Shown here one piece after another: positions 8,858 to 63,700 of a stretch of 64,000 nucleotides of DNA. Below the pieces are notes generated by a model. It had not been told where the DNA came from and ran no database searches. It saw only the letters and a program-made list of their open reading frames with translations. Source of the stretch: a plasmid; the NCBI RefSeq assembly GCF_054482525.1, contig NZ_JBTHVG010000004.1; one strand, written 5' to 3'. Position numbers and translations under genes: made by a program. How positions within the stretch are numbered: position 1 is the stretch's first letter; each line of letters begins with the position of its first letter.

Positions 8858-11560
8858 GTGAATGCAGTCATTCCGAAAAAGAGAAGGGACGGCAAGTCTT
8901 CGTTCGAAGACCTGGTATCCTACGTCTCTGTCCGGGATGACATGACCGATGAGGAACTGGATTTATCTTCTTCTTCGCAGGCTGAACAACCGCACCGAAG
9001 CCGTTTCAGTCGCCTTGTTGATTATGCGACACGTCTTCGAAATGAGTCATTCGTGGCGCTGGTTGATGTCATGAAGGACGGCTGCGAATGGGTCAACTTT
9101 TATGGTGTCACCTGCTTTCATAACTGTACTTCTCTTGAAACTGCCGCTGCAGATATGGAGTACATTGCCCGGCAGGCACACTATGCAAAAGATGACACTG
9201 ATCCTGTTTTTCACTACATCCTTTCCTGGCAGTCACATGAAAGCCCGCGTCCGGAACAGATTTATGACAGTGTACGTCATACGCTGAAATCACTCGGCCT
9301 TGCCGACCATCAGTATGTCTCTGCCGTGCATACTGATACAGATAATCTGCACGTCCATGTGGCTGTTAACCGGGTACACCCTGAAACGGGTTATCTGAAC
9401 CGGTTATCATGGAGTCAGGAAAAACTCAGTCGTGCCTGCCGTGAGCTTGAACTGAAGCATGGTTTTGCTCCGGATAACGGTTGCTGGGTCCATGCGCCGG
9501 GAAATCGTATCGTTCGCAAAACTGCCGTTGAACGTGATCGCCAGAACGCTTGGACACGCGGAAAAAAACAAACTTTTCGCGAGTATGTTGCGCAGACAGC
9601 GGTCGCTGGTTTACGCAGTGAACCTGTACATGACTGGTTATCCCTGCATCGTCGTCTTGCTGAAGATGGTTTGTACCTGTCTCAGATGGACGGAAAATTT
9701 CTGGTGATGGATGGCTGGGATCGCAACAGGGAAGGTGTACAGCTTGACTCGTTTGGTCCCTCCTGGTGTGCAGAAAAACTCATGAAAAAAATGGGTGACT
9801 ACACGCCAGTGCCAAAAGACATTTTCAGCCAGGTGGAAGCACCAGGACGCTATAATCCGGACTTCATTGCAGCTGATGTTCGCCCGGAAAAAATCGCTGA
9901 AACAGAAAGTCTGCAGCAGTATGCCTGTCGTCATCTTGGAGAACGTCTGCCGGAAATGGCACGGGAAGGACGGCTGGAAAACTGCCAGGCTATTCACCGC
10001 ACACTGGCTGAAGCGGGATTATGGATGCGTGTTCAGCATGGTCACCTGGTTATCTGTGACGGTTATGATCATAACCAGACTCCCGTTCGTGCTGACAGCG
10101 TATGGTCACTGCTGACGCTCGACAATGTGAATCAACTCGATGGTGGCTGGCAGCCTGTACCAACAGATATTTTCCGCCAGGTTACGCCAACAGAACGCTT
10201 CCGTGGTCGTCGTATGGAGAGCTGTCCTGCGACCGATAAAGAATGGCACCGTATGCGTACAGGTACGGGGCCGCAGGGGGCTATCAAACGCGAACTGTTT
10301 TCTGACAAAGAAAGTCTGTGGGGATACAGCATCAGCCATTGTAGCCCTCAGATTGAAGAAATGATCACACAGGGTGAGTTTACCTGGCAGCGTTGTCATG
10401 AGTTGTTTGCACAACAGGGACTGATGCTACAGAAACAACATCACGGGCTTGTTGTCGTTGATGCCTTTAATCATGAGCAAACGCCGGTGAAGGCCAGCAG
10501 CATTCATCCTGATCTGACTCTGGGGCGTGCAGAGCCACAGGCCGGACCTTTTGTGAGTGCCCCAGCAGATTTGTTTGACAGGGTGCAACCTGAAAGTCGC
10601 TATAACCCGGAGCTGGCTGTCAGTGACAGGTACGGGGTCAGCAGTAAACGTGACCCAATGCTGCGCCGGCAGCGACGTGAAGCCAGAGCTGAGGCCCGTG
10701 CTGACCTGCGTGCCCGCTATCTGGCATGGCGTGAACAATGGCGTAAACCAGATCTGCGTTATGGGGAACGTTGTCGGGAAATTCATCAGGCATGCCGTCT
10801 GCGGAAGTCACACATTCGTGCGCAGTACGATGATCCGGCATTACGTAAGCTGCATTATCACATTGCAGAAGTTCAGCGAATGCAGGCATTGATCAGGCTG
10901 AAAGAAGACATCAGGGATGAGCGGCAGAAACTTATTGCTGACGGGAAGTGGTATCCACCCTCTTACCGTCAGTGGGTCGAAATTCAGGCTGCTCAGGGAG
11001 ACAGGGCTGCTGTATCGCAGCTGAGAGGCTGGGATTATCGCGATCGCCGTAAAGATAAGTCACGCACAACGACAACAGACCGCTGTGTCGTGCTTTGTGA
11101 ACCGGGCGGAACGCCGGTATACGGTAATACCGGTGATCTCGAGGCCCGTTTGCAGAAGAACGGGAGTGTTCGTTTCCGTGACCGTCGGACGGGAGAGTTT
11201 GTCTGTACGGATTATGGTGACAGGGTTGTTTTCCGTAATCACCATGACCGCAATGCGCTGGCAGATAAACTGGATTTGATTGCACCGGTATTATTCGGGC
11301 GTGATCCACGCATGGGTTTTGAACCAGAAGGAAACGACAAACAATTTAACCAGGTCTTTGCTGAAATGGTTGCCTGGCATAATGTGACAGGCCGTACCGG
11401 TCACGAAGACTACAGGATTACGCGACCGGACGTGGATCATCACCGTGAAGGAAGTGAACGCTACTACCGCGATTATATCGCGGCGAACAGCAACGATGAC
11501 GCATCACTGCCTCCGCCGGAGCAGGATAAACTCTGGGAACCGCCTTCTCCGATGAGATGA
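8858..11560 (+). CDS. nikB: Relaxase NikB
   Basis: About 900 aa. It has the histidine-triad relaxase motif HTDTDNLHVHVAVN. Its position after nikA and its length match R64 NikB. Confidence 0.9.
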   Translation: MNAVIPKKRRDGKSSFEDLVSYVSVRDDMTDEELDLSSSSQAEQPHRSRFSRLVDYATRLRNESFVALVDVMKDGCEWVNFYGVTCFHNCTSLETAAADMEYIARQAHYAKDDTDPVFHYILSWQSHESPRPEQIYDSVRHTLKSLGLADHQYVSAVHTDTDNLHVHVAVNRVHPETGYLNRLSWSQEKLSRACRELELKHGFAPDNGCWVHAPGNRIVRKTAVERDRQNAWTRGKKQTFREYVAQTAVAGLRSEPVHDWLSLHRRLAEDGLYLSQMDGKFLVMDGWDRNREGVQLDSFGPSWCAEKLMKKMGDYTPVPKDIFSQVEAPGRYNPDFIAADVRPEKIAETESLQQYACRHLGERLPEMAREGRLENCQAIHRTLAEAGLWMRVQHGHLVICDGYDHNQTPVRADSVWSLLTLDNVNQLDGGWQPVPTDIFRQVTPTERFRGRRMESCPATDKEWHRMRTGTGPQGAIKRELFSDKESLWGYSISHCSPQIEEMITQGEFTWQRCHELFAQQGLMLQKQHHGLVVVDAFNHEQTPVKASSIHPDLTLGRAEPQAGPFVSAPADLFDRVQPESRYNPELAVSDRYGVSSKRDPMLRRQRREARAEARADLRARYLAWREQWRKPDLRYGERCREIHQACRLRKSHIRAQYDDPALRKLHYHIAEVQRMQALIRLKEDIRDERQKLIADGKWYPPSYRQWVEIQAAQGDRAAVSQLRGWDYRDRRKDKSRTTTTDRCVVLCEPGGTPVYGNTGDLEARLQKNGSVRFRDRRTGEFVCTDYGDRVVFRNHHDRNALADKLDLIAPVLFGRDPRMGFEPEGNDKQFNQVFAEMVAWHNVTGRTGHEDYRITRPDVDHHREGSERYYRDYIAANSNDDASLPPPEQDKLWEPPSPMR

Positions 11561-11682
11561 CAGATGAAGCTTTATTAGTTTCGTTATAGAATGAAAAAAT
11601 CACCAATATTAAATATGGGTGTGGTGGTAAAAATAAATATGTTAGGCAATGTTAAGTAACTCTATTGACGGAATCATGTTTT

Positions 11683-12501
11683 ATGAGCACTAATCTTGCT
11701 TTTCGTTATGCAAGTGTTGAAACTTTTTTTAAAATGATTGAAAACCAAGAATTATGGTTTACCGATCTTCGGAATATGAATGATCCGGAAGAATACTCGG
11801 CTGGCTATGAAATAGTCAAGAGAATAATAAATGAGGAATTTCCAGATTGCATTAGACTATTAGAAGAAGTATCACCTAATAAGATAGACGAAAATTTTAA
11901 GATATTAATTTGTTGTTTCTGTTCTGATGGAGATCGTTCCAACATGTGGAGCGAGTATGGTGATAATGGCAAAGGCGTTGCTATTGGTTATGATAAGAAT
12001 ATTATAACCCAAAATCATATTTTGGCTCGGTTTGAAGAACATTTTCAACCTATTAGTGGTAGAGTTGTCTTTCATCCTGTTATCTATTCAGAAGAACTGT
12101 TTCGAGAATATGTAAGAAACGCATTGCATGATTATATTAATCGCTCAAGTTTAAATATTAAATATGCACGTGGCATACTTCATGCACATCTTATCAGACT
12201 ATGTTCATTATATAAGAGAGAGAGTTTTGAATGTGAAAATGAGGTCCGAGGACTTATTGAAGTAGATGAACGTACATTCCCACCATACAAACTTGAAAAA
12301 CGTAGTACTGATTACGGAATTGCGTATTATACTAAGGTGAAATTTACCTGTAACAATATTACGGCAATTAGAGAGATTGTGTTGGGGCCTTTATTTGAAC
12401 AATCTGATGAACAGCTTCGGTCAAAATTAGATGATCTAGGGTTAAAGAATATAAAAATTAGACGTTCCATATGTACCTACAATGATGTGGTTAATCTGTA
12501 A
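11683..12501 (+). CDS. DUF2971-family protein (272 aa), AT-rich cargo gene
   Basis: N-terminal hallmark FRYASVETFFKMIENQELWFTDLRNMNDPEE. It is visibly AT-rich relative to nikB and trbC, and is followed by its own terminator. Confidence 0.7.
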   Translation: MSTNLAFRYASVETFFKMIENQELWFTDLRNMNDPEEYSAGYEIVKRIINEEFPDCIRLLEEVSPNKIDENFKILICCFCSDGDRSNMWSEYGDNGKGVAIGYDKNIITQNHILARFEEHFQPISGRVVFHPVIYSEELFREYVRNALHDYINRSSLNIKYARGILHAHLIRLCSLYKRESFECENEVRGLIEVDERTFPPYKLEKRSTDYGIAYYTKVKFTCNNITAIREIVLGPLFEQSDEQLRSKLDDLGLKNIKIRRSICTYNDVVNL

Positions 12502-12505
12502 TCTG

Positions 12506-12533
12506 AATGCTGGTATCTAGTACCAGCATTTTT
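12506..12533 (+). terminator. Rho-independent terminator
   Basis: aatgctggta...taccagcatt stem followed by ttttt. Confidence 0.75.
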
Positions 12534-12573
12534 AAATAGGTTTTTTGCGGGAAGACCAAAGTATGGTCACAGT

Positions 12574-14865
12574 TCAGTACATTCCGTCCCAGTCCGGACG
12601 GTTGTTTTTTTTATGATGAAACCCGTTTACAGGACGCCCTGTCGGGTGGTTATTGTCCTGTGGAAGCGTTAACAGGTTTATACCGGCTCTTTCTGCTCTC
12701 ACTGATATCTGATTTTCCTCATTTGTTTCAGGTAGTTCTGGTCTGTTCAGTGTGATATAGCGAATTCGTCGCTCTTCCCGGGTGGTCGTTTTAAGCGTAT
12801 TCACCGCTGTTTCCCATAAGGCACTTTCACGTGCGTTGATATCCGTGTCGTACTCTTCCAGCATTGCCATAGCCGCCTGACGTCCTGCAATGCGTTGCTG
12901 GAATGTATCCACGATCGTGTGCGGCTCTGTGCGAATTTTTCGTCTTTTTCTGGAGGGTTTTGCAGTCAGGACGCCAATGATGGCACTGACATTTTCCGGT
13001 GACGGTATTCGACGTTGAGTAGTACGGGGAACAAGACGGCGGAGACGGTCCAGGCGTGGCGCATCCACGCTGATATACCTGTTTATAACAACGGGATCGC
13101 TGCTGCAGCTTTTCTCATCGTCAGGGATGAAGAATGATGCTGATGGTACGGTTTCTCCCCGGAAAATAGAAAAGAACTCGCCAGGATGAAGTTCAATCAA
13201 CTCCTGAACATTTATCTTGCTTTCCATCAGGATGCTGATTTGTGGGCTGTCAATCCATGATTCACCAAATATGCCGTCCTGACGCTGCAGGTTGTTCATC
13301 CTCGCCCTGGCTTCTTCACCGGCGGCGCTTTTCAGCGTTCTGGCCGTACTACCCTCGCTGACAATCCTGCCGGCAAATTTTGTCCCCGTGTTCTGCATCA
13401 GTGTTGCAGTATTCGTGGCTGTTGTCTGTCCTTCTATACGTTCCTGGTCCTGTGCCATCAAAATCAGAGCAAAATCCAGTGAACGCACCTGAGTGGCTTC
13501 CACAGCAATACGGTCCGTATAGTATGCCCCCACTTCATCAAGGAAACACAGATAAGGGAAACGCCCCTTATATTTTTTGACTTCCAGTGCATCGGAATCA
13601 GTTCCTTCGAGGCGGTAGCCCAAATCACGGGCGAGAATCATACTTTTCTGGGTGATAAACATTCGTCCAAGAGCAGACGTTGTATGCGCTGATGTATCCA
13701 GAGCGGGGATCATTACCATCAGAATCCTGTCGCTGTGAATGCTGTCACGGATATCGATATCACCGGAATCTTCAGCAAAAATATCCCCGAATGCTTCCGT
13801 GAATGTGCTGAAAGTTTCAGAAAACTGCCCGGAGAGATAAGCATGTTGTTTTCTGGGTTCTTCCGTCCAGGCTGATGGTGTCCTGACCAGCGACAGGTCG
13901 AAACCGGGAACGTCCTGAAGGTAGTTACGTAACGGTGCGATAGCTTCTTCCGGCCACTGATCATCGAGGCCACGACAGTAAAGTTTGGCCATCCCTTCGA
14001 GAGTCATATGTTCACGGAGCATCTGCAGCGACATTGTTTTGCCTTCGCGCACACACCAGAATTTAGTACCAAATACCAGTGCCTTATTCATGGCAATGGC
14101 CCGGGACTGCCACTCGCCCCCCTGGACGTTCTGGGGCAGCATTGACTGCATTGTCTCCGCTGTGAATGCCTCAGTGCTGTAACAGAAGGGATTCCAGGTA
14201 TTTGACTGAGGACGCGTTTTTTCACCACTCAGAATGATTTCACTGCGGGATTTTCCTCCGTTCATGAAGTTAATGACTTCCACATCGTCTTCACGTCCAA
14301 AGCGTCTGGCCAGATACCAGATCGTTCTTGCCGTATCATTCTGTGCCTTGCCATCGACAAGGGTGAATCCTCTTGCCCAGCAAAGTGGGTTAATCGCCCA
14401 GGCAAAGATGGTTTCCGTTTTACCGCCACCGGTGGTGGCGAAAAACATTATATGGCGGGTCAGATCGTCCATACTCAGCCATAACTCCCTGCCAATATCC
14501 CTGACGCGTTGATAACCAACATAGAATATGCCGCTGGCCGGTGATTCCAGAATGACCTCATACTGGAACAGGGTTGGCCAGAAGCTGAAAAGACTTCTTT
14601 TAATCATTCTGTCCTGTGACGGGTCAGCACATTCCAGCGTCATGGGCATACGAAGAGGGCAGCGCCATCGCTGCAGACTAAATACCAGCATTGTTATCAG
14701 TGTGAACAACAGACATGCCGGTAATGCAAGTGGCCAGATAAAACTGGCCACAAGACTTGCCACCAGGCAAAAGCCATAGATATTGAGACTCTGGAGTGCA
14801 TTCCAGACAGGATTTCCCCAGGCTGTACGGTGTAAAAGCTCGGGGTTAACGCGATGTTCACTCAT
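12574..14865 (-). CDS. trbC: TrbC, type IV coupling protein (DotL/IcmO-like)
   Basis: 763 aa, with N-terminal transmembrane segments and the Walker A motif TTGGGKTE. Order and length match R64 trbC. Confidence 0.85.
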   Translation of the reverse strand: MSEHRVNPELLHRTAWGNPVWNALQSLNIYGFCLVASLVASFIWPLALPACLLFTLITMLVFSLQRWRCPLRMPMTLECADPSQDRMIKRSLFSFWPTLFQYEVILESPASGIFYVGYQRVRDIGRELWLSMDDLTRHIMFFATTGGGKTETIFAWAINPLCWARGFTLVDGKAQNDTARTIWYLARRFGREDDVEVINFMNGGKSRSEIILSGEKTRPQSNTWNPFCYSTEAFTAETMQSMLPQNVQGGEWQSRAIAMNKALVFGTKFWCVREGKTMSLQMLREHMTLEGMAKLYCRGLDDQWPEEAIAPLRNYLQDVPGFDLSLVRTPSAWTEEPRKQHAYLSGQFSETFSTFTEAFGDIFAEDSGDIDIRDSIHSDRILMVMIPALDTSAHTTSALGRMFITQKSMILARDLGYRLEGTDSDALEVKKYKGRFPYLCFLDEVGAYYTDRIAVEATQVRSLDFALILMAQDQERIEGQTTATNTATLMQNTGTKFAGRIVSEGSTARTLKSAAGEEARARMNNLQRQDGIFGESWIDSPQISILMESKINVQELIELHPGEFFSIFRGETVPSASFFIPDDEKSCSSDPVVINRYISVDAPRLDRLRRLVPRTTQRRIPSPENVSAIIGVLTAKPSRKRRKIRTEPHTIVDTFQQRIAGRQAAMAMLEEYDTDINARESALWETAVNTLKTTTREERRIRYITLNRPELPETNEENQISVRAERAGINLLTLPQDNNHPTGRPVNGFHHKKNNRPDWDGMY

Positions 14866-15928
14866 GGCCAGACTCGCTGTCGGTGGTTTTCAGGAATAAA
14901 TTAAGCGTGCCAGTTTCCTGCAGAATTCCTGTAGGCAGATGCCAGCCGGTGTCGGACAGCACCCATGGGGTACCGGCAAATCCGAACTTACGGAAGGCGA
15001 CATTGTTAACATCAATCGCAGCTCTGGCTGCTTTCAGGCATGTTTCATCTGCAGGCGTTGTTTCTTCTGATGGCGTCATCATTCCGTTATCTGCGGAATA
15101 CAGTCGGTGCCAGCCGGCAGCACGTTTCTGAGCATCTTTTTCACACAGCAGTGGTGCCACACGGTCGGTGGATTCCTCTCCACCAATAACTGAAACCGGG
15201 TAGATAACGACATTGAAGTCGCTGGCCAGGCGTTTTAAGGCCGGCTCCAGAAGTCTGCAGTTAGGACAGGCAGGATCGAGAAATGCGAACAGGGTTCGTT
15301 CATGACCGGATGACAGGTTGATGGTAAACATGCCCCGATCGGCGTTCCGCTTCAGAACAGTAGCCAGATTATGTCGCGCAGCTGCGGCTTCCGGATTTTT
15401 GCTTGTGATTGTTTTCTCCGGGACCTGGACGTCTTTTTTCGGGGGAACCGGGAGTTGAATGCCTTCATTTAATGGCACAGTGTGATTCAGGTGAGGGGGT
15501 AGCAGTCGTGGCTCACCTGCTGTCTGTACTGCTTCAGGCGTTGTATCATCCCAGAATACACGATCAACATAGCGGAACAGAGAGAAGCCAATCGTTGCCA
15601 TTACGAACAGCACAACGCTGGCGATTATGCCACGGAACAAAGGTGTTCTGCTGAAGCGGCGTTCCATCAGATATTCAAGGCGCAGGCAGGAATCAATAGC
15701 TGTAAGTATCTGGTCAGCGTTATGCTCCTGTTTATCAATCAGGACGGTTTCTCTGTTACGGGTGCCCATGGCGTCAAAGGCTATATGAATCAGTTGATTA
15801 TTTCGTGTTACCAGCCCTGACAGGGCATCCCGTGGAAGGACAGCAATAATTTCTGTCCTGCCATCCGGCCAGATTGCCTGCACGGAAATATGTTTTGCAA
15901 TGCGTGTTGCAAAGTACTCGATTGTCAT
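14858..15928 (-). CDS. trbB: TrbB, periplasmic thioredoxin-fold (DsbC-like) protein
   Basis: 356 aa with a CPNC active-site motif (DPACPNCRLLEP). It overlaps the trbC start. Confidence 0.85.
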   Translation of the reverse strand: MTIEYFATRIAKHISVQAIWPDGRTEIIAVLPRDALSGLVTRNNQLIHIAFDAMGTRNRETVLIDKQEHNADQILTAIDSCLRLEYLMERRFSRTPLFRGIIASVVLFVMATIGFSLFRYVDRVFWDDTTPEAVQTAGEPRLLPPHLNHTVPLNEGIQLPVPPKKDVQVPEKTITSKNPEAAAARHNLATVLKRNADRGMFTINLSSGHERTLFAFLDPACPNCRLLEPALKRLASDFNVVIYPVSVIGGEESTDRVAPLLCEKDAQKRAAGWHRLYSADNGMMTPSEETTPADETCLKAARAAIDVNNVAFRKFGFAGTPWVLSDTGWHLPTGILQETGTLNLFLKTTDSESGHE

Positions 15929-15946
15929 TTTCAGTTCTCCGGATAA

Positions 15947-17155
15947 TCAGAATTCGTTGTCTGTAGCAGGTGTGCGGGGCAGGATGTCGTCGGTGAGGGA
16001 CCAGTTGGTCAGGATGCGGCGTTTCCGGTCGCGATCTGGTTGTGGTTCATCCCAGATAAGACCGAGACTGAGCATATCCCGCCGTAAGCCTTCCACCGCT
16101 TCATCAACACAGGGTTCAGGGCAGGGAAGACCAAAACGCATGGCTTCGGCCTCTGCACGTGCAACGGCCACCACGCCAGCGCCTTCAATAAATCCTTTCG
16201 TGGTATTGGCGCGGTGTAATGCATAAAACAGCGTTCTGTCCACGCCTTTCAGCCAAATCCAGTTGGGTGGCGTAAGCCGCAGGTCATGTGCATACAGCCA
16301 GACCAGCCCACTGCGGACGTAGCGATGTTGTTTCAGCCATTGCTGTGCTCCGTTGCTTTTAATCACTCTCTGGAAAGCTGATTTGGCCAGTGAATAAACA
16401 GGGGTACAGAATTTCCCGCTGTCCCGTTTGCTTTTAATTCTGCATGAGAGGTTCAGTGTATCCATGAGCTTTAATGCTGCCTTCCGATCATCCAGGAAAT
16501 ACTGAAGGCCAAATATGGCAAAGAGCGCTTTTTCATGTGGTGCCATGTCTTTCCAGGACGTTAAAGGTTTACCCAACTGGGCCATGAAACATCGTCTTGC
16601 AGCTGCAACATCGAGCTGCATATTGGTGATGAGAGTATGCTGTTCGACAAATGCTTCCGGGGTGAGAGCAACCCGCCGTTCAGGTCGTTTACCACCATGA
16701 AAGAGTTTTTTCGGATCACCATCTGCCAGTACAGGGGCGATAGCAGGGGATAACGAAGCAAAGATGTGTGGCAGTCGGGTAATATCTACTGGTCTGCGGG
16801 TGAAACGGCTTTGTCCCGGATGTTGATACCATTCCCACAAACACCAGAGTGTCACAGGTAAGAGGTACATCCACAGAATACCTATGGTCTGTTCCATGAC
16901 GTTAACCCACTGGCTATAGCTTATGTTGGCGGCGTTGTTACCGGTCATGGCAAGCAGGTTGTATCGTGGTGCTGCATAGTTATGAAATGGTCCCCAGTCG
17001 ACCAGTCCCCATAAGGTATGAAGAATCAGGCAGCTGGTGTAAACCACTTCCGGCAAGAATAACCATATGACGAATAGCAGCAGGATAAGAAGGACACCAA
17101 CAGCGCCCCATATCTGCATAGGATCTTCTGCGACAGGCTGTCGATTGTAAGACAT
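15947..17155 (-). CDS. trbA: TrbA (DotM/IcmP-like inner-membrane protein)
   Basis: 402 aa with N-terminal transmembrane helices. It is the first gene of the trbABC operon, as in R64. Confidence 0.85.
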   Translation of the reverse strand: MSYNRQPVAEDPMQIWGAVGVLLILLLFVIWLFLPEVVYTSCLILHTLWGLVDWGPFHNYAAPRYNLLAMTGNNAANISYSQWVNVMEQTIGILWMYLLPVTLWCLWEWYQHPGQSRFTRRPVDITRLPHIFASLSPAIAPVLADGDPKKLFHGGKRPERRVALTPEAFVEQHTLITNMQLDVAAARRCFMAQLGKPLTSWKDMAPHEKALFAIFGLQYFLDDRKAALKLMDTLNLSCRIKSKRDSGKFCTPVYSLAKSAFQRVIKSNGAQQWLKQHRYVRSGLVWLYAHDLRLTPPNWIWLKGVDRTLFYALHRANTTKGFIEGAGVVAVARAEAEAMRFGLPCPEPCVDEAVEGLRRDMLSLGLIWDEPQPDRDRKRRILTNWSLTDDILPRTPATDNEF

Positions 17156-17248
17156 GACAAAGTCTCCATTTCTGGAATTTAAATCAAACGGAAAGGTTAA
17201 AAATTTATTTGCAGGCGATAAGAGCTAACCAGAGGAATTAGCCGTGTG

Positions 17249-17419
17249 ATAAAAGGATTGTTGCAGATACGAAAGTCGTTAGAATAGCCGCGGACGCTTG
17301 AGGCTGTATGCCGAAAGCGTTTTGTGGATGGTATACAGCAGAAAGCCCCCTGGAGATTTTTTATCAATCAACCAGGGGCTCTACTGTAATGCCTAGACAA
17401 CATTATAGTAGCCTGATAA
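17249..17419 (+). repeat. Duplicated, truncated copy of the pnd promoter/leader
   Basis: 171 bp matching 18670-18840, with 8 substitutions and two 1-nt indels by hand alignment. It includes TTGTTG-16 bp-TAGAAT (17258-17285) and the first 10 pndC-like codons, then diverges. Confidence 0.85.
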
Positions 17420-17461
17420 TTTAGATATGTGTACATCCTACCGGAAAAGATACTTTTCAGG

Positions 17462-18553
17462 TCATTTATCAATGGGTGTTATTACCACCGGTAGTTTGTT
17501 TACGTCTTCTAAATTAACTGGTACCGGAGGTAACCATATTAATCTAGGTTTACGCTCATGGGCTAGTTCTGGTTTCTTACTTCCTGTCCAGTATGTATGC
17601 CAGTGTCCCCGGCGTATATGAGGACGTTTGCTACCTATTGTTGTCCGCTCTTTCCCTGTGGGTTCTGCTTGGCGATATTGCCGTATGGCTTGCCCCATTC
17701 GAATACCAACGTCCCACTCCCGAATGTTTTGTGCTGGTAGTTCATGGTGAGTGTGAACATGCTTTTTGTGCTTTTCTGACCGTTTAAATTGATTTTTTTC
17801 TTTTATATCATTGATCTGTGAACAGATATAAAGCACCATTGATATCTGTGCGTTAAGAAGATTAAACTCCCTGTCTCTGAAATCTTTGAGCTTTTCGTTA
17901 ACTGTTACGACGACTTCACCATCGATACACTCCATCTTTCTGGAGTCAAGAAGTCCTTCACGAGAGTCCTTTATTCTGATGATATTATTGACGACGTCAA
18001 CATCCTTTTCTTTTAGCCCTGTAGTTCCTTGACTTTGTTTCAGATCATCAATAATGAAAAGCCGGATAATATTTCCATTATTGTCCAAAAATGGATAAAA
18101 GAAAAATCCATGTATCGGATAGGACGTAGGAAGTATAGTATGCAGATTTTCGGCTGAAACATAGATACTCCATGAAGGGAGTTCCTTGAGGATCTGTGCA
18201 GGAATGTTATCAACATAGGTGTTAGCCACATCACTGATGATGTCCTCGCTTAGGCGATAAATTTTCTTTGTATAGCGCCAGTATATAAAACACAAAATAC
18301 TGTGTGGTGACGATAATTCGTTTCCATGAAATAAAGATTCTAGTTTAGAAGCCAGTTCTTCATTTTTTTGTTGGCTCTGGAGACGACTCATTAGTATGCG
18401 TTCTTCATCTTTTCTGTCGATAAATAATAATGGATTGTCGCTGCGTTTTTTATTTCGGCATGCAAAGATTTGCTCTTCAAGCCCAGGGATTGTGTTGATG
18501 ACTTTTTTTATCTTTTTCAGGAAAATAGGTTGTTTTAACTGCGACATTTCCAT
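17462..18553 (-). CDS. Orphan AT-rich protein (363 aa), unknown function
   Basis: Long ORF in a visibly AT-rich insert between the two pnd-leader copies. The C-terminus is basic and His-rich, with the motif RPHIRRGHWHTYWTG. No family recognised. Confidence 0.7.
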   Translation of the reverse strand: MEMSQLKQPIFLKKIKKVINTIPGLEEQIFACRNKKRSDNPLLFIDRKDEERILMSRLQSQQKNEELASKLESLFHGNELSSPHSILCFIYWRYTKKIYRLSEDIISDVANTYVDNIPAQILKELPSWSIYVSAENLHTILPTSYPIHGFFFYPFLDNNGNIIRLFIIDDLKQSQGTTGLKEKDVDVVNNIIRIKDSREGLLDSRKMECIDGEVVVTVNEKLKDFRDREFNLLNAQISMVLYICSQINDIKEKNQFKRSEKHKKHVHTHHELPAQNIREWDVGIRMGQAIRQYRQAEPTGKERTTIGSKRPHIRRGHWHTYWTGSKKPELAHERKPRLIWLPPVPVNLEDVNKLPVVITPIDK

Positions 18554-18669
18554 CTCCTAAGGGGATTCTTTTATTAACTAAAATCAGCATAACATGCGTT
18601 GTTGTGAAGTAGAGAACCATGTATTGGGTTGGTTGTTAACTTCAAAAACAACGCTGAATCATTCAAATA

Positions 18670-18840
18670 ATAAAAGGATTGTTACAGATACGAAAGTCGT
18701 TAGAATAGCTGCGGGCGCTTGAGGCTGTATGCCGAAAGCGTTTTGTGGACGGTATACAGCAGAAAGCCCCTGGAGATTTTTTTATCAATCAACCAAGGGC
18801 TCTACTGTAATGCCTCAACAACATTATAGTAGCCCGATAA
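18670..18840 (+). repeat. pnd promoter/leader (intact copy)
   Basis: The partner of 17249-17419. It continues into pndC and pndA. Confidence 0.85.
18760..18820 (-). ncRNA. pndB: PndB (Sok-like) antisense RNA, approximate limits
   Basis: Minus-strand TTGCCT-17 bp-TACTAT (-10 at 18826-18831), antisense to the pndC start. A terminator-like stem (agcccttgg/ccaggggct) lies downstream. The limits are inferred by analogy with hok/sok. Confidence 0.5.
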
Positions 18841-19013
18841 CCGCCGGAAGGCAATGGAGGGGCTATGATGCCACAGCGAACGTTTTTAATGATGTTAATC
18901 GTCGTCTGTGTGACGATTCTGTGTTTTGTCTGGATGGTGAGGGATTCGCTTTGCGGACTCCGGCTCCAGCAGGGAAACACAGTGCTTGTGGCAACGTTAG
19001 CCTACGAAGTTAA
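18810..19013 (+). CDS. pndC: PndC (Mok-like overlapping reading frame)
   Basis: The ATG at 18810 opens a frame that overlaps pndA, as in hok/mok-type loci. Confidence 0.6.
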   Translation: MPQQHYSSPITAGRQWRGYDATANVFNDVNRRLCDDSVFCLDGEGFALRTPAPAGKHSACGNVSLRS

Positions 19014-19020
19014 ACGTTAA
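18868..19020 (+). CDS. pndA: PndA, Hok-family type I toxin (50 aa)
   Basis: MPQRTFLMMLIVVCVTILCFVWMVRDSLCGLRLQQGNTVLVATLAYEVKR is recognised as PndA/Hok family. It is too short to appear in the ORF track. Confidence 0.9.
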   Translation: MPQRTFLMMLIVVCVTILCFVWMVRDSLCGLRLQQGNTVLVATLAYEVKR

Positions 19021-19030
19021 CGGGCAACAC

Positions 19031-19051
19031 GGCGGCAGGTTTTCTGCCGCC
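19031..19051 (+). terminator. pnd terminator hairpin
   Basis: ggcggcag-gtttt-ctgccgcc stem-loop 11 nt after the pndA stop. Confidence 0.6.
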
Positions 19052-19091
19052 GCTTTGTTGCGAAGGCTGACCTCATTGCGCCCTTTCTTCT

Positions 19092-19343
19092 TCAATGAAG
19101 CGTATCTGGTATTGTTTCATTTTCCCTGAAGCCGATTAGCTCCAGCCGAATGCCTTTGCCATCGGGGGCCACGTTCTGCATTTCGCAGATACCACGTCGG
19201 GTCATGAGTGTGAAGGCTGTCATTGCCAGCATGGCTAACGCGTTTTCCTCGCTTCCGCTGCGTTTCTCGAGAGCATCGGCAATTTCTTCTATGCTCCCCA
19301 CCTGAAAGCAAGAGTCGAATTCTTTACTCCACTTTTCTGACAT
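19092..19343 (-). CDS. Hypothetical protein (83 aa)
   Basis: ORF with moderate coding appearance. No recognised domain. Confidence 0.5.
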   Translation of the reverse strand: MSEKWSKEFDSCFQVGSIEEIADALEKRSGSEENALAMLAMTAFTLMTRRGICEMQNVAPDGKGIRLELIGFRENETIPDTLH

Positions 19344-19496
19344 CGGATTTTCTCTCTGTATTTATGGGTAGTTATCGAACTGAATGTGCCAGTTTTTTCA
19401 GGAGACGGCAAAGTTGAGATGATTGGTTCTGATTCAAAGCATGAGTTTCCCCGGTGTGACGGGCATGTCGGGCGGATTTTGAGAAACAACAGATGT

Positions 19497-19527
19497 AAAA
19501 AAACCGACTGGTGAGGTCGGTTTTTTT
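19497..19527. terminator. Bidirectional rho-independent terminator
   Basis: aaaaaaa-ccgac-tggtgag-gtcgg-ttttttt. It has a U-tract when read on either strand. Confidence 0.85.
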
Positions 19528-19583
19528 ACTGTTCCGTTACAGAGTGGGTGGCTCTGGTCGGAAAAGAACTGTCTATAACTGAC
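19497..19583 (-). ncRNA. Predicted AgrB/IstR-like antitoxin sRNA (~85 nt)
   Basis: A minus-strand promoter (TTGCAG 19618-19613, 17-bp spacer, TACTAT 19595-19590) places the transcription start near 19583. The first 32 nt are complementary to 19740-19771 (31 Watson-Crick pairs plus 1 G-U). It ends at the terminator at 19497-19527. Confidence 0.6.
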
Positions 19584-19739
19584 TTGTAGATAGTACGTCT
19601 GGAATTATATTTCTGCAAGTACTGGATAAGTGTATACTCGGCATGTCAGCTCTGAGGCATGTTCTGTCCGACATATTGTTCAGCGGGAAGAACAGGTTGC
19701 AAGTCCTGGCCAAAACATCAGGTGGTGCTGGTTTTGGTG

Positions 19740-19771
19740 CTCTGGTCGGAGAAGAACTGTCTATAACTGAC
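19740..19771 (+). promoter_or_regulatory. Predicted sRNA target box in the toxin mRNA leader
   Basis: Direct repeat of 19552-19583 (31/32 identical), 73 nt upstream of the small ORF's ATG. Confidence 0.6.
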
Positions 19772-19843
19772 ACTATAGAAACCGTTGTGACAGGCAGTGT
19801 AAGAGCGAACAACGGGGTTCTTTCTCCAGTGATGGAGAAGCGG

Positions 19844-19939
19844 ATGATTAATCTGTTAATCATCGTTCTCAGGGCAGTAGTTGCCGTTGCAAACGCGCTG
19901 ATTGCTGTTCTGGAACTGATCCGGGAACTTATCGACTGA
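19844..19939 (+). CDS. Predicted DinQ/TisB-like type I toxin peptide (31 aa)
   Basis: MINLLIIVLRAVVAVANALIAVLELIRELID. GGAG lies 6 nt upstream and can pair with ctcc at 19824-19827. The peptide is a single amphipathic helix with polar residues at 7-residue spacing, and it resembles the DinQ and TisB sequences as I recall them. Confidence 0.6.
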   Translation: MINLLIIVLRAVVAVANALIAVLELIRELID

Positions 19940-19958
19940 TAAGCCTGGAAACGTAACT

Positions 19959-19988
19959 AAGGGCAGGGAGTTACCGCTTCCTGCCCTT
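19959..19988. terminator. Hairpin between convergent small genes
   Basis: aagggcagg (19959-19967) pairs perfectly with cctgccctt (19980-19988). There is no clear T-tract. Confidence 0.45.
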
Positions 19989-20003
19989 TAACAAAAAGAG
20001 ATC

Positions 20004-20180
20004 TCACGTTAAAAATTTGTACCCTTCTTTAACTTCCAGTGCCTGCTCCTTTGACTCAAACATCAGTCTTGTTTTCCCGGGAACACCCCATGAAATGTAT
20101 TCAACATCTATCCACCATTTTCCATATTCTTCATATGGCTCGGATATTACTTTTTTGACAAAGGCGTCTACCAGATTCAT
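20004..20180 (-). CDS. Small hypothetical protein (58 aa)
   Basis: The internal ATG at 20180 is preceded by aaaaaggaaaaaac. The sequence is MNLVDAFVKKVISEPYEEYGKWWIDVEY..., soluble and Trp-rich. The track's longer form (94 aa) lacks a Shine-Dalgarno sequence. Confidence 0.45.
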   Translation of the reverse strand: MNLVDAFVKKVISEPYEEYGKWWIDVEYISWGVPGKTRLMFESKEQALEVKEGYKFLT

Positions 20181-20571
20181 TGTTTTTTCCTTTTTGTGTT
20201 GAAAATAATTAATGCCAGAGCACAGCGAAAATAATGAATGCGCTGGCTGTGATAATTGCGATTTTCTCCCATATGATATTTTTCTCATGGGGGTTTCTAC
20301 GGAGATTATTTCTTCGCATTGAGATACCGGTATTCATGTTTTATCTTGGATTTTTGTTTTGTTGTCTGTCTGGCAGGCTGTTCTGCGCCCGTTTGTGACA
20401 AGGTTAGCTTATGGGGTTAAATGGTCACGGACATCATGCGGACGGTTCCCTGTCACATGCCATCTGGTTTTTTCATTCAAATTGAGAGATATTGCTAAGT
20501 TGAGTCGCTTGCGATAGTGGACTCCTGTTTGCAAGTGAGTGCCATTGTTTATTTCATGAAGAGGATTGATT

Positions 20572-42779: not shown

Positions 42780-42904
42780 AACGCTCCGCGCCGAATCGAT
42801 CCATGATGGATGACTCGACGATTTATGAATCGAACGTACCGGCGCTTGTCCCTGAAACAGTTCCCGGCCCTCGTCCGGATGACCTGCAATTCAGACAGGC
42901 ACAT
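42780..42904 (-). promoter_or_regulatory. Conserved tra leader module, copy A (upstream of traH)
   Basis: One of three ~125-bp homologous elements (with 62171-62293 and 63233-63357). In minus-strand sense it begins ATGTGCCTGTCTGAATTGCAG and ends GGATCGATTCGGCGCGGAGCGTT. Confidence 0.7.
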
Positions 42905-42965
42905 GTGCCCGTACACTCTTGTATCTTACTGAGTATATCAGAATTTATGTAAATTCAAATATCCT

Positions 42966-60692: not shown

Positions 60693-61376
60693 TCAGTGTA
60701 ATGTGATAGTCGTCTGCTCCTGTGTTGCACCCCAGACATCTTCTGGCAAGCTGGGCAGCCCGATAAATAGGGTGTGAAAGAGGGTTTCTCTGCGTTCGAT
60801 CCCGAATTGATGTTCGTATCCTCTCACCACCTGAAATCCTTCGTCGGAGAATATTAACTCTGCCGTTTCCAGAAGCTGCATAGTTTTGCGGTGTAGTGGA
60901 GTGATCAGCTGCAACGTAACTGGTGCCCTCATATCGCCTGTCGGTAGAAAACACTCTTCGGTGCGACTTAGTTGTAGCAGATGGCGTTTCCCGGAACAGG
61001 CCCGTTCAATGGATTCATTGAACACCCTCTCAGGCCATGGGCAGACATAAGTGCGCCAGCCTGCTTTCTGTAATTTACCCAGCGCAGCCCGAAAACGAAA
61101 CAACGGACATTCCCCGACAGTGGCAGAGCTGAGAAAGAGCGTATTCAGCGTTCCGATGATGGGAATATTGCGATCTTTTTCGGTCAATGCTTTTAACGCC
61201 ATGATTTCGCCAGGGAGACTACTGAACTCAGGATGTCTGCTGGCACCAGAAAGCCATTCAAGCAGGTAATGCCGTAATCCGGTTTCACTGGTTATATTGT
61301 GGTTTTCCTGTGCCGTTTTCAGGGCATTCAGTGCACACCAGAGCAACTGGCGCACGGGATGTTCTGTCGTGGTCAT
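60693..61376 (-). CDS. traC: TraC (positive regulator of transfer genes in R64)
   Basis: 227 aa ORF downstream of traB. Assigned by position and length only. Confidence 0.65.
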   Translation of the reverse strand: MTTTEHPVRQLLWCALNALKTAQENHNITSETGLRHYLLEWLSGASRHPEFSSLPGEIMALKALTEKDRNIPIIGTLNTLFLSSATVGECPLFRFRAALGKLQKAGWRTYVCPWPERVFNESIERACSGKRHLLQLSRTEECFLPTGDMRAPVTLQLITPLHRKTMQLLETAELIFSDEGFQVVRGYEHQFGIERRETLFHTLFIGLPSLPEDVWGATQEQTTITLH

Positions 61377-61595
61377 GCGAATGTCCTACTGTGAGATGAA
61401 AAGAAGACCGGTATCCGTTCTCTCCGCCACACGTGATGGCACGGGCCGGCCTTTGATAAAACGAATCAATACTCTGGGGTGAAGCCTTTTATTTCTTTCG
61501 CCATTAAGAAATACACGGTTCCATCAAAAGACAGGGGGAGTCCATGGTGGGGATGGCTTCGTGCAGGCTTCACTCCGGAATATTCTCTTGAATTG

Positions 61596-61620
61596 AAAAA
61601 AGCCCGGCCCGAAGGCCGGG
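61596..61620 (-). terminator. Hairpin plus U-tract downstream of traB
   Basis: In minus sense it reads cccggcc-ttcg-ggccggg followed by cttttttc. Confidence 0.65.
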
Positions 61621-61629
61621 AAATACTGG

Positions 61630-62163
61630 CTATGGGATGTTTACAAGGCGCTCCATAAAGCCGTGATGTTCGGCATTTGATACCAGTTCCAGGAGCAGGG
61701 ATATCCTCGACTCAGGCTGGAGAGTATTTTCCATTCTGAGGAGATACTGATATTGTGCTTTTGTCAGCCATATGCTGGAAGCCGCATTCAGCTCTTCCCT
61801 GGCTCCCGGATTTAGCACAGGGTCCGGGTAAATCTTCATTAATCCATCAACAATATCTTTATTGACGGGTTTTATTTCACCGCCAAACTTCACGAAATCA
61901 ATGAAGGCGCTATGGCGACGTAATGCCGATACTGGTTGAATGTCAAAATTAGCCAGAATAAAAAAGTACCCTGGAAAAATAGCGAATATTCTTTCACGGT
62001 AACAGCACCTGGAGTCTGCCCGTCTTATCTTTCTTGTTATTAATGGAGTCCATGGTACGACGTTTTGCTCATTCAGCCATGAGAATAAAGATTCTCTGTT
62101 TTTGCCGGCTGTATTATATTGCGCAAGATACCAGTTCCGGTTATTCAGGTGTTCTATATTCAC
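61630..62163 (-). CDS. traB: TraB, RfaH/NusG-like (NGN-domain) transcription factor
   Basis: It is collinear with RfaH by eye: NWYLAQY with SWYLLYC, IFPGYFFILANFD with LFPNYLFVEFD, FVKFGG with FVRFGA, and ESRISLLLELVSN with EARSMLLLNLINK. The GTG at 62163 is preferred over the track's TTG at 62184, which lies inside the repeat element. Confidence 0.75.
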   Translation of the reverse strand: MNIEHLNNRNWYLAQYNTAGKNRESLFSWLNEQNVVPWTPLITRKIRRADSRCCYRERIFAIFPGYFFILANFDIQPVSALRRHSAFIDFVKFGGEIKPVNKDIVDGLMKIYPDPVLNPGAREELNAASSIWLTKAQYQYLLRMENTLQPESRISLLLELVSNAEHHGFMERLVNIP

Positions 62164-62170
62164 GAAGTTC

Positions 62171-62293
62171 AACGCTCCGCGCAAAACCGATCCATGATGG
62201 ACGATTTTGCGATGTCAGGCGAATATGCTAAATCATATGTCTGAAGCAGTGTCCAGCCCATATCTGGATAAACTGCAGTTCTGACAGGCATAT
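62171..62293 (-). promoter_or_regulatory. Conserved tra leader module, copy B (immediately upstream of traB)
   Basis: Homologous to 42780-42904 and 63233-63357. It ends (minus sense) in GGATCGGTTTTGCGCGGAGCGTT, 8 nt before the traB GTG. Confidence 0.7.
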
Positions 62294-62578
62294 AACCAGC
62301 AGACTCTAGTACGTTCTGTATCGGTGATTTGGCGAACTCACAGATAAAGAACGGCTAAGCACTAATATCAGCAATACAGTGGCACAGTATTGTGATACGC
62401 GAAATAAAACATCAGCACGTCAGTTCAGAGTAAGGTCGCCATATATCGGGCATGAGCCAGATACAAATAATTGGGACACCGTCTGAAGTGATTTGCTTTA
62501 TTAAAGTAACTTGTGCTTGGTGTTTATGTTTATCAATTTGGGATCGCCTGTAAAGTGCAAAATGCAATTTCCATGAAA

Positions 62579-62601
62579 GTGTCCCCTTTAATGGGGACAC
62601 C
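62579..62601 (-). terminator. Hairpin after traA
   Basis: gtgtcccc-tttaat-ggggacac stem-loop directly after the traA stop. Confidence 0.55.
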
Positions 62602-62604
62602 TGT

Positions 62605-62913
62605 TCACATTTTTTCGTTTTCTTTAGCTGTATTGCTAATCATGAAAACGAACGTTCGCATCAGCACAGCAGAGCGAAGTGCATCATATCCTTCCAGATT
62701 TAAGTTCTTCAGGCTTCGCTTCAGGTAGGTTCGTACCGTTTCGGGAGAAAGCCGACAGTTCTGAGCAATGGCGTCGTAAGGAACACCCATTGCGTAAAAA
62801 ACGCAGACTTTAAGCTGGTTTGTTGATAGCTCGGGAAACATGCCTTCCAACAGAGTGATGGCCGGGAGTTTCTGTATCAGTTGAGGTGACATAGCAAAGG
62901 TCTCCGATGACAA
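62605..62913 (-). CDS. traA: TraA, LuxR/GerE-type HTH regulator
   Basis: 102 aa with a GerE-like HTH (LSTNQLKVCVFYAMGVPYDAIAQNCRLSPETVRTYLKRSLKNL). Confidence 0.75.
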   Translation of the reverse strand: MSSETFAMSPQLIQKLPAITLLEGMFPELSTNQLKVCVFYAMGVPYDAIAQNCRLSPETVRTYLKRSLKNLNLEGYDALRSAVLMRTFVFMISNTAKENEKM

Positions 62914-63232
62914 CTAAAAACGCTATCACTGAGTTCCTACGCTCATTGGTGATAGCCCAGACGGGGGTAGGAATACCGGCGTCATCGGAAACCGGCCAGG
63001 CTAATGCCTGCCCCGCCTGAGCTACCATAGATGACGACAAGAAATACAAGTTCCTGTCTTTATGGTATGGCAAAAAACGACGCCAAATGAAGAAATTAAC
63101 TTCTGCGCCGACGATGACTACGCGGGTTCCTACGCCCGATCACAGTTTTGCCTGTGACCAGTAAAGGGTACTTAGTATAACGCACCGAGTCAACTAACAG
63201 CTTAAAAAACATACAAAAAAGCGTCAAAACTT

Positions 63233-63357
63233 AACGCTCCGCGCCGAAGCGATCCAGGCGTGATGCTTCTGCTTTGTGGCGTTCGAACATGCTGGTCCAT
63301 ATGCACGAAACGGTGTCTGACCCTCGTCCAGACAATCCGCAGTTCTGACGAACATAT
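63233..63357 (-). promoter_or_regulatory. Conserved tra leader module, copy C (upstream of traA)
   Basis: Homologous to copies A and B. It ends (minus sense) in GGATCGCTTCGGCGCGGAGCGTT. Confidence 0.7.
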
Positions 63358-63446
63358 GAACAAATATGCTCTTGTAGAGGCTGTTGTTACACAATTGGCG
63401 GGTTGTGTAACAAATGGTTTTATCATCTAAGAATTATTCTATTTAC

Positions 63447-63700
63447 GATCGAATGATCTACAAAATGATTTTTTAAAGGTTTTTTAGATCGTTTAATTGC
63501 ATTAAAACAGAATATTATTCTGTTAGGTGGATCGGTTGTAAGATAAATGATCGTGAGCAGGACAAAAGTCGATCTTTTAATCCAAAAGAAGGATCTAAAG
63601 CAGAAAAATCTGCTTTTAAAAATAGATTTTATTTTTTTGACGCAGGTCAAGATTAACTTATTAGAGGTATCAGTGAGGAGGCACTGGAAGAGAAGAGATC
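63447..63700. other. oriV: GATC-dense AT-rich region, probable IncI1 oriV
   Basis: I counted 8 GATC sites in 254 bp, seven of them within 63447-63595. The region is AT-rich and lies downstream (minus sense) of a terminator hairpin, as expected for the repZ-CIS-ori order. Confidence 0.5.

Follow-up and report, generated by a model that had tools for sequence, protein, structure and literature searches.

The 64-kb stretch of plasmid DNA analysed here (contig NZ_JBTHVG010000004.1; hereafter the window) contains a leader module that is repeated upstream of traA, traB and traH (copies A, B and C, respectively), and this report concerns that module and its relation to the RfaH-like protein TraB. 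It shows 100% identity to a plasmid of IncI1 type, and at ≥ 99% identity 1291 plasmid records are matched. Read along the minus strand, it runs from the repZ control region through copy A (63413–63233), a C4-type antisense RNA module, traA (62913–62605, encoding a small protein with domain matches to LuxR and sigma-70 region 4-type helix-turn-helix, HTH, proteins) and the traB promoter region to copy B (62341–62171), traB (62163–61630), a terminator (61620–61595), traC (61376–60693) and pilI to pilV. Beyond these lie rci, traE, traF, traG, copy C (42918–42780) and the genes from traH to excA. The two operons, all co-directional, measure 13.4 kb (traB to pilV) and 21.7 kb (traH to excA), as long as a first-pass annotation of the window, made by a model from the sequence alone, had put them.

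The most compact sign of the repeat is the 12-mer GCGCGGAGCGTT, which occurs exactly three times in the window, always on the minus strand (62171–62182, 63233–63244 and 42780–42791). With up to one mismatch allowed, 0.13 matches would be expected, and three were reached in none of 100 shuffles. Each occurrence forms the end of a module of ~140–170 nt, and the flanks of the three copies align with a mean identity of 73%, which bears out the first-pass placement of one copy before each of traB, traA and traH; a profile hidden Markov model and a covariance model likewise recover exactly three full copies in the window. The same annotation had delimited an element of ~125 bp with the 5′ motif CATATGCCTGTCAGAACTGCAG and the 3′ motif GGATCG..TT..GCGCGGAGCGTT. 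The repeat and both motifs stand, but the unit is longer: it starts at ACAAGAG, giving spans of 62306–62171 (copy B), 63371–63233 (copy A) and 42918–42780 (copy C), and in copies A and B it is preceded by a further small hairpin.

From 5′ to 3′, the full module opens with a small hairpin, HP0, continues with the long and irregular HP1 and the shorter hairpin HP2, and closes with the conserved tail GCGCGGAGCGTT. HP1 (~86 nt) has a lower stem of ~22 bp, a conserved asymmetric internal loop TC(A/T)GAAYT opposite TT, a 4-bp helix GCAG:CTGY and, at the top, an apical stem-loop with the loop ACGAGGG. HP2 (~30 nt) has GGATCGnTTC as its 3′ arm, in which GGATC, containing a GATC Dam site, is invariant. 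In copy B, HP0 lies at 62324–62341 (GTGA..TCAC, with CGCCAA at 62334–62329 in the loop); HP1 occupies 62221–62306 (internal loop TCAGAACT at 62284–62277, apical loop at 62263–62257), HP2 62181–62210 (GGATC at 62193–62189) and the tail 62171–62182, with 7 nt between its end and the traB GTG. Copy A comprises HP0 (63384–63413; TTGTTACACAA [CCCGCCAA] TTGTGTAACAA), whose 11-bp stem was reached by none of 1000 shuffled flanks, HP1 (63285–63371), HP2 (63272–63243) and the tail (63244–63233). Copy C, in the traG–traH intergenic region, comprises HP1 (42832–42918), HP2 (42819–42790) and the tail (42791–42780). An open reading frame (ORF) starting at the ATG of CATATGCC was rejected as unconserved, with a TGA at codon 4 in copy C and diverging frames in copies A and B.

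We examined the fold on a MAFFT alignment of 18 diverged module copies that had not been fitted to any structure. RNAalifold returned 17 pairs with compensatory changes, and covariation was seen in both HP1 and HP2. Paired cells made up 85.2% of the total compared with 73.4% in shuffles, 28 of 43 pairs were changed on both sides (19.1 ± 2.2 in shuffles) and doubly changed cells numbered 105 (40 in shuffles); none of 500 shuffles was as high on any of the three measures. Slid controls were only 31–39% paired. When single sequences were folded by minimum free energy (MFE), almost every copy returned this architecture; the z-scores of the three window copies lay between −2.4 and −3.1. Because G:U cells outnumber A:C cells (100 vs 32), the fold belongs to the sense strand. 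A reading of the module as a single-stranded-DNA promoter is unlikely, given this same G:T bias and a position far from the leading region.

The alignment of other I-type plasmids that the first-pass annotation had proposed as a check thus finds the module conserved and covarying in 18 copies, with some revision of its hand-drawn details. The inner 3 bp of its 5′ stem belong to a larger covarying hairpin; the outer CTGAA:TTCAG is mostly invariant and has one mismatched position in 10 of the 18 copies. The compensatory change from CAG:CTG to CGG:CCG is genuine (column pair 45:78), but it occurs in the traA copy and not, as had been stated, in the traH copy.

A CCGCCAA box sits in the loop of HP0 in ~13 of 15 A- and B-type copies, the stem sequence varies by lineage, and a contiguous stem beats at least 97% of flank shuffles in 7 of the 15. 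This loop could pair with the 5′ half of the tail: a Serratia leader (L022, described below) offers 8 perfect base pairs, and L014 and L018 offer 8–9 if G:U pairs are counted. Duplexes between box and tail averaged −12.1 kcal/mol for cognate and −11.3 kcal/mol for non-cognate combinations, a difference that is not significant (permutation p ∼ 0.09), so a pseudoknot between HP0 loop and tail is a possibility only.

The module is tied to traB well beyond IncI1. We collected traB loci with 53–100% TraB identity (IncK2/Z, pO113, Enterobacter pOP-I, Salmonella Inverness and nine metagenomic or genomic contigs), and in every one of them the module lies directly upstream of traB and a traC homologue follows behind. 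There are three copies in IncI1-type plasmids, two in one contig and a single one in all other loci; in B-type copies elsewhere, the tail ends 1–17 nt ahead of the start codon. The architecture extends to a more distant relative, the Serratia proteamaculans MPF_I plasmid (L022), whose NusG-like protein is only 26% identical to TraB: its leader (z = −5.9) has the CCGCCAA box, a long hairpin of unrelated sequence, HP2 with GGATCGATTTT and the tail GGCGGAGCCTG, which lies ∼62–74 nt from the start codon. The module is missing from the leaders of NusG paralogues of IncX1, IncX3 and other types, which the covariance model, run with filters off, scored at 9 bits at best. In three of these five leaders, the PrfaH site known from the literature (TTCGGGGTCATCCGAG), or a sequence close to it, stands in its place. 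A metagenome pattern scan with GGATCGNTTN{3,4}GCGGAGC gave > 120 matches, nearly all of them chance matches in GC-rich contigs, with the module in only 3 of 80 returned loci, and a genome scan by TraB alone returned near-identical plasmids only.

Two further loci show related genes in other settings. In L016 (GCA_011975355.1 contig, 9891–20504), a traB–traC pair (54% TraB identity) with only HP2 and the tail of the module precedes a VirB/MPF_T-type type IV secretion system (T4SS) in place of an I-type system, which shows that this regulatory cassette can travel from one T4SS type to another. In L023 (NZ_AP026951.1, 1926–2929), an IncFII/FIC plasmid, two tandem NusG-family genes lie ahead of a VirB operon, the first with a PrfaH-like site CGAGGTCATCCGAG in its leader.

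Taken together, these comparisons indicate that the repeats are real and functional, and that each is a structured leader, conserved in I-type plasmids and linked there to the RfaH-like TraB/TraC pair. As a structured element of the sense strand, the module appears to be new. No Rfam family matches it at gathering scores or at E-values up to 10 (4227 other families plus JUMPStart), and no description of the repeats was found in the searchable literature, in which subscription journals are thinly covered and an earlier account, for example in the R64 sequence paper, is possible. Within the same literature, no TraB target site has been reported for the IncI complex.

Directly after traB lies the strongest intrinsic terminator of the region (61595–61620, minus strand; CCCGGCC TTCG GGCCGGG CTTTTTT), with seven G:C pairs and a run of six T. 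A GC-rich hairpin followed by a T-run occupies this position in 14 of 14 loci, differing in sequence from locus to locus, and we noted that the terminator sequence covaries among 14 family members (window, L001–L003, L011–L019). Module, traB, terminator and traC form the conserved unit. Between terminator and traC, at about 61440–61570, the window and most other loci also have a hairpin of ∼120 nt, which has no Rfam family match and may be a second conserved RNA element.

Published reporters, with their primers mapped on the window, place copy B relative to the traB promoter. A fragment covering 62550–62153, which takes in the whole of copy B and 257 bp upstream, gave no expression and no TraA response, and extending it by the 54 bp from 62604 to 62551 gained both traB::lacZ expression and the TraA response (PMC5801416). 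Since these 54 bp are needed for expression, the traB promoter lies ∼250 bp upstream and copy B falls within the 5′ leader; support for transcription through copy B is indirect and comes from these reporters. The covariation reaches the AGAG of ACAAGAG, and together with HP0 this means that transcripts must start upstream of the module. We found no sigma-70-like promoter at any copy; a promoter-like site at 63542–63514 could feed copy A. The single RACE (rapid amplification of cDNA ends) study of IncI1 deals with leading-region promoters.

That IncI1 transfer depends on TraB and TraC has reportedly been established since 1993. The traB gene (61630–62163, minus strand) encodes 177 amino acids from a GTG start, the one used in published lacZ fusions (PMC5801416, primers), and published genetics found TraB and TraC necessary for both transfer and pil expression. 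By four independent measures TraB is an RfaH-family protein, as the first-pass annotation had judged by eye, and this is not new: PGAP labels the product a NusG-family protein, Aviv et al. 2016 and Yang et al. 2025 (PMC11880322) place it in that family, and the latter call R64 TraB a PrfaH homologue. TraB matches Pfam NusG (PF02357) at 22.3 bits (cut-off 22.2, E = 1.9e−4) and TIGR01955 RfaH over its full length at E = 7.7e−11; the score of 42.2 bits stays below the equivalog cut-off of 144.5, which makes TraB an RfaH homologue and not an orthologue. A TraB family profile searched against PDB recovered RfaH (E = 3e−5, residues 9–167) and IncX3 PrfaH (E = 2.4e−12), and the best Foldseek matches of the AF2 model were RfaH-ops (RfaH E = 6e−9), PrfaH and autoinhibited RfaH. 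In this model, the NGN domain has a pLDDT (predicted local distance difference test) of 71–88, and the C-terminal part contains helices (121–162) at low confidence (42–66). About 160 columns align to autoinhibited RfaH, with the KOW glycines missing in the alignment.

The traC gene (60693–61376, minus strand) is the obligatory partner of traB. Its product is confidently predicted to fold as a five-helix bundle with an alpha/beta domain (pLDDT 84.7). Neither structure nor family searches gave it a convincing relative; DUF2913 is touched by some of the homologues only, and locus L014 has a second DUF2913 gene upstream.

The module is the best candidate for the site by which TraB switches on the long transfer operons, and its most likely role, which we put at about even odds, is that of a cis-acting leader for TraB-dependent antitermination with positive feedback. 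On this model, TraB, possibly with TraC, would engage RNA polymerase at the module, and the polymerase would ignore the intrinsic terminator behind traB. Termination resistance would then extend through traC and the pil genes and, from the additional copy in IncI1, through traH to excA. Basal transcripts would stop after traB and give way to read-through once TraB accumulates; because the site lies ahead of traB itself, a positive feedback loop would result. If TraB acts at the module, it would do so through the non-template DNA of GGATCG/GCGCGGAGCGTT (as do RfaH and PrfaH), the folded RNA (as with LoaP and nut) or both. The placement of the tail on the non-template strand, ahead of long co-directional operons, fits ops, and to read the tail as ops-like is plausible, if unproven. 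GGCG..AGCGT is common to the tail and ops, and the Serratia tail is nearer to ops than that of IncI1, corresponding to ops without T6, with G10 replaced by C and with a TG end.

Several observations weigh against this model. The 10-of-12 match to ops with one extra C that the first-pass annotation had counted is arithmetically right for the traA and traH copies, but the two mismatches fall at T6 (G) and G12 (T), and in copy B the leading GG (ops G1 and G2) is absent. T6 is flipped into the RfaH pocket and its change to A cuts RfaH recruitment ∼3-fold, and G12 contributes to pausing (PMC5995543); the tail thus departs from the 12-nt ops consensus GGCGGTAGnnTG with its T6 and pause-inducing TG, and no canonical ops occurs in the window beyond chance. 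Within the family, the tail varies (GCGCGAAGCGTT, GGGCGAGAGCGT, G-GTGGAACGTT and GTGCGGAGCCTT), with only A, C and T of gGAgCgT invariant, next to a GGATC that never changes. The residues by which RfaH reads ops (H20, R23, Q24 and R73) correspond to W29, E32, Q33 and S85 of TraB in a mapping that is approximate at this low identity; with the pocket unconserved, any recognition would be TraB-specific. Beyond the tail, copy C has neither HP0 nor the CCGCCAA box, a single copy suffices in IncK/Z-type plasmids and other relatives, and the Hft fragment, which runs from ∼63183 downstream and by itself drives traA::lacZ, begins only after copy A. Finally, the only Shine–Dalgarno (SD)-like GGAG of traB copies lies within the tail, 5–14 nt from the start and mostly at long spacing.

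The first-pass proposal of a TraB loading site or structured leader accordingly survives in part: a structured sense-strand leader tied to traB is upheld, and the conserved terminator behind traB is an obvious target for antitermination. The 13-mer is a putative contact site, and its resemblance to ops fails at T6 and G12, as that of TraB to RfaH does in the pocket residues. A bolder version can be put forward tentatively, in which a short non-template DNA signal is not enough to load TraB, which would also need the folded leader RNA of ∼150 nt (HP0, HP1, HP2 and possibly the loop–tail pseudoknot), with TraC as a possible RNA-binding partner. The module would then be a nut-like, hybrid RNA-plus-DNA recruitment site for a proteobacterial RfaH paralogue, reused three times in IncI1 as a bistable conjugation switch. 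It would lie ahead of an antisense repressor of the P1 C4 type, whose effect it may overcome.

All three rival explanations are less well supported than TraB-dependent antitermination. In the first, the module is a riboregulator: alternative pairings that hide or expose the GGAG in the tail, or RNase III cleavage of the long HP1 stem, would govern how traB is translated or what becomes of its mRNA, in response to a signal or factor other than TraB and with copies A and C as duplicates reused for attenuation. We regard this as possible but rather doubtful. The GGAG precedes the traB start in all B-type copies, but its spacing is above the optimum in most, and copies A and C keep the 12-mer perfectly with no conserved ORF behind it; as these copies and the Serratia leader (62 nt from the start codon) retain the tail with no adjacent start codon, a role as SD alone is unlikely. 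As to alternative pairings, RNAalifold proposed a small hairpin, CGnTTC:GGAGCG, that is 94% pairable, but we rejected it for lack of covariation and because it competes with the covarying HP2; the complementarity of the HP0 loop CCGCCAA to the tail speaks for such pairings, the comparison of cognate with non-cognate combinations (not significant) against them. Also in favour of this reading, weak hairpins with T-runs overlap the tails behind copy A (63240–63218) and copy C (GAGCGT..ACGCTC with a T-rich run, 42786–42767), pESI transfer responds to temperature and bile, and there are published hints of a role for Hfq.

That the module is a promoter needing TraC, TraB or TraA, with CCGCCAA and TACAAGAG as recognition boxes and each copy starting an operon, is improbable. 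The CCGCCAA and ACAAGAG boxes are conserved in sequence, but covarying pairs begin within the AGAG of the latter and the former sits in a covarying hairpin loop, which puts both inside the transcript; copy C, moreover, has no CCGCCAA box. TraA does have a sigma-70 region 4-type HTH and the published reporters were assayed without TraB and TraC, but the fragment with the whole of copy B was silent and unresponsive to TraA, and none of the copies has a sigma-70-like promoter. Least probable of all is a role of the copies as small-RNA genes or as small-RNA targets (copy A, for instance, specifying a discrete RNA of ∼170 nt that ends at 63240–63218 and acts in trans on the other copies or titrates a protein): the hairpin behind copy A is terminator-like, the neighbouring Hft region is an antisense-RNA (C4) system and small RNA involvement was suggested in PMC5801416, but the terminator-like feature is unconserved in other A-type copies (L011 and L012A), B-type copies continue directly into traB, the search for an antisense promoter predicted none, and a C4-like RNA acting on the modules was rejected for want of any special complementarity to them.

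The Hft region itself, the superspreader region of pESBL and R64 (PMC4288162, PMC5801416), lies at 62914–63183 on the minus strand and resembles the c4 antisense module of phage P1. Rfam C4 matches at 62945–63032 with 77.5 bits, alongside sub-threshold matches to c4-a1b1 (63119–63171, E = 4e−6) and isrK. Two segments of C4, UUCCUAC and CGAUGAC, have their complements, GUAGGAA and GUCAUCG, both upstream and downstream, and the downstream target GUCAUCGGAG overlaps the traA SD. The X1 and X2 mutations of drd11, located from primers, fall in C4 and beside the downstream target. C4 is mentioned in neither PMC4288162 nor PMC5801416; the module could explain the 50-fold derepression of traA. Elsewhere in the window, Rfam matches to two sok antitoxin RNAs (hok/sok-type) and an AgrB antisense RNA (17292–17449, 18713–18870 and 19495–19582) fall in the leading/maintenance region; these are ordinary plasmid features with no relation to the leader module.

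IncI-complex plasmids are major carriers of genes for ESBLs (extended-spectrum beta-lactamases) and AmpC. They also account for ∼45% of all plasmid-borne nusG-family genes (PMC11880322). For this group, the module provides a precise candidate cis element for TraB/TraC control of IncI1 transfer and adds a candidate family to the catalogue of cis-regulatory RNAs; it also suggests a part for RNA structure in recruiting an RfaH-type factor, outside the RfaH/ops paradigm. Add the conserved terminator after traB and the C4-type module of Hft, and a complete regulatory circuit behind the “superspreader” phenotypes of IncI1 plasmids comes into outline.

Compared with RfaH and ops in Escherichia coli, including the tra operon of F, the IncI arrangement shares a NusG paralogue that combines an NGN domain with a C-terminal part like that of RfaH, a non-template motif rich in GC in the (for IncI, probable) leader of long operons and, as proposed here, a logic of antitermination and anti-polarity. 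In contrast to ops, which needs no such structure, the IncI motif lies within a structured module of ∼150 nt with covarying hairpins; it differs from ops by a 1-nt insertion and at T6 and G12, and the base-pocket residues are unconserved in TraB. TraB, unlike RfaH, is plasmid-encoded, lies behind its own site and always comes with TraC.

A further parallel is PrfaH/ActX of IncX plasmids, a plasmid-encoded RfaH-like activator essential for conjugation. IncX3 PrfaH binds an ops-like non-template hairpin in its own 5′ untranslated region and has been proposed to overcome a termination signal before virB1 (PMC11880322). In both systems, the site (a candidate one in IncI) lies on the non-template strand in the leader of the regulator's own gene and close to the start (within ∼50 nt for PrfaH; 7 nt before the traB GTG for the copy B tail), and a termination signal separates the regulator gene from the T4SS genes. 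The sites themselves differ, TTCGGGGTCATCCGAG in IncX as against GGATCG..GCGCGGAGCGTT in IncI; the PrfaH sequence and hairpin TCGGGGTCATCCGAG occur in IncX3, IncX1 and one IncFII-type leader and are absent from the IncI module, whereas HP0, HP1 and HP2 are absent from IncX leaders and IncI1 has three copies.

Rfam JUMPStart is likewise a cis-regulatory leader motif before long operons, although its covariance model does not match the module. LoaP (a NusG paralogue of Firmicutes), lambda N–nut and HK022 put, all associated with processive antitermination, have no sequence or structural homology to the IncI module, but what marks their leaders, a conserved structured RNA upstream of a terminator to be bypassed, is also what the covariation and the conserved terminator behind traB reveal here.

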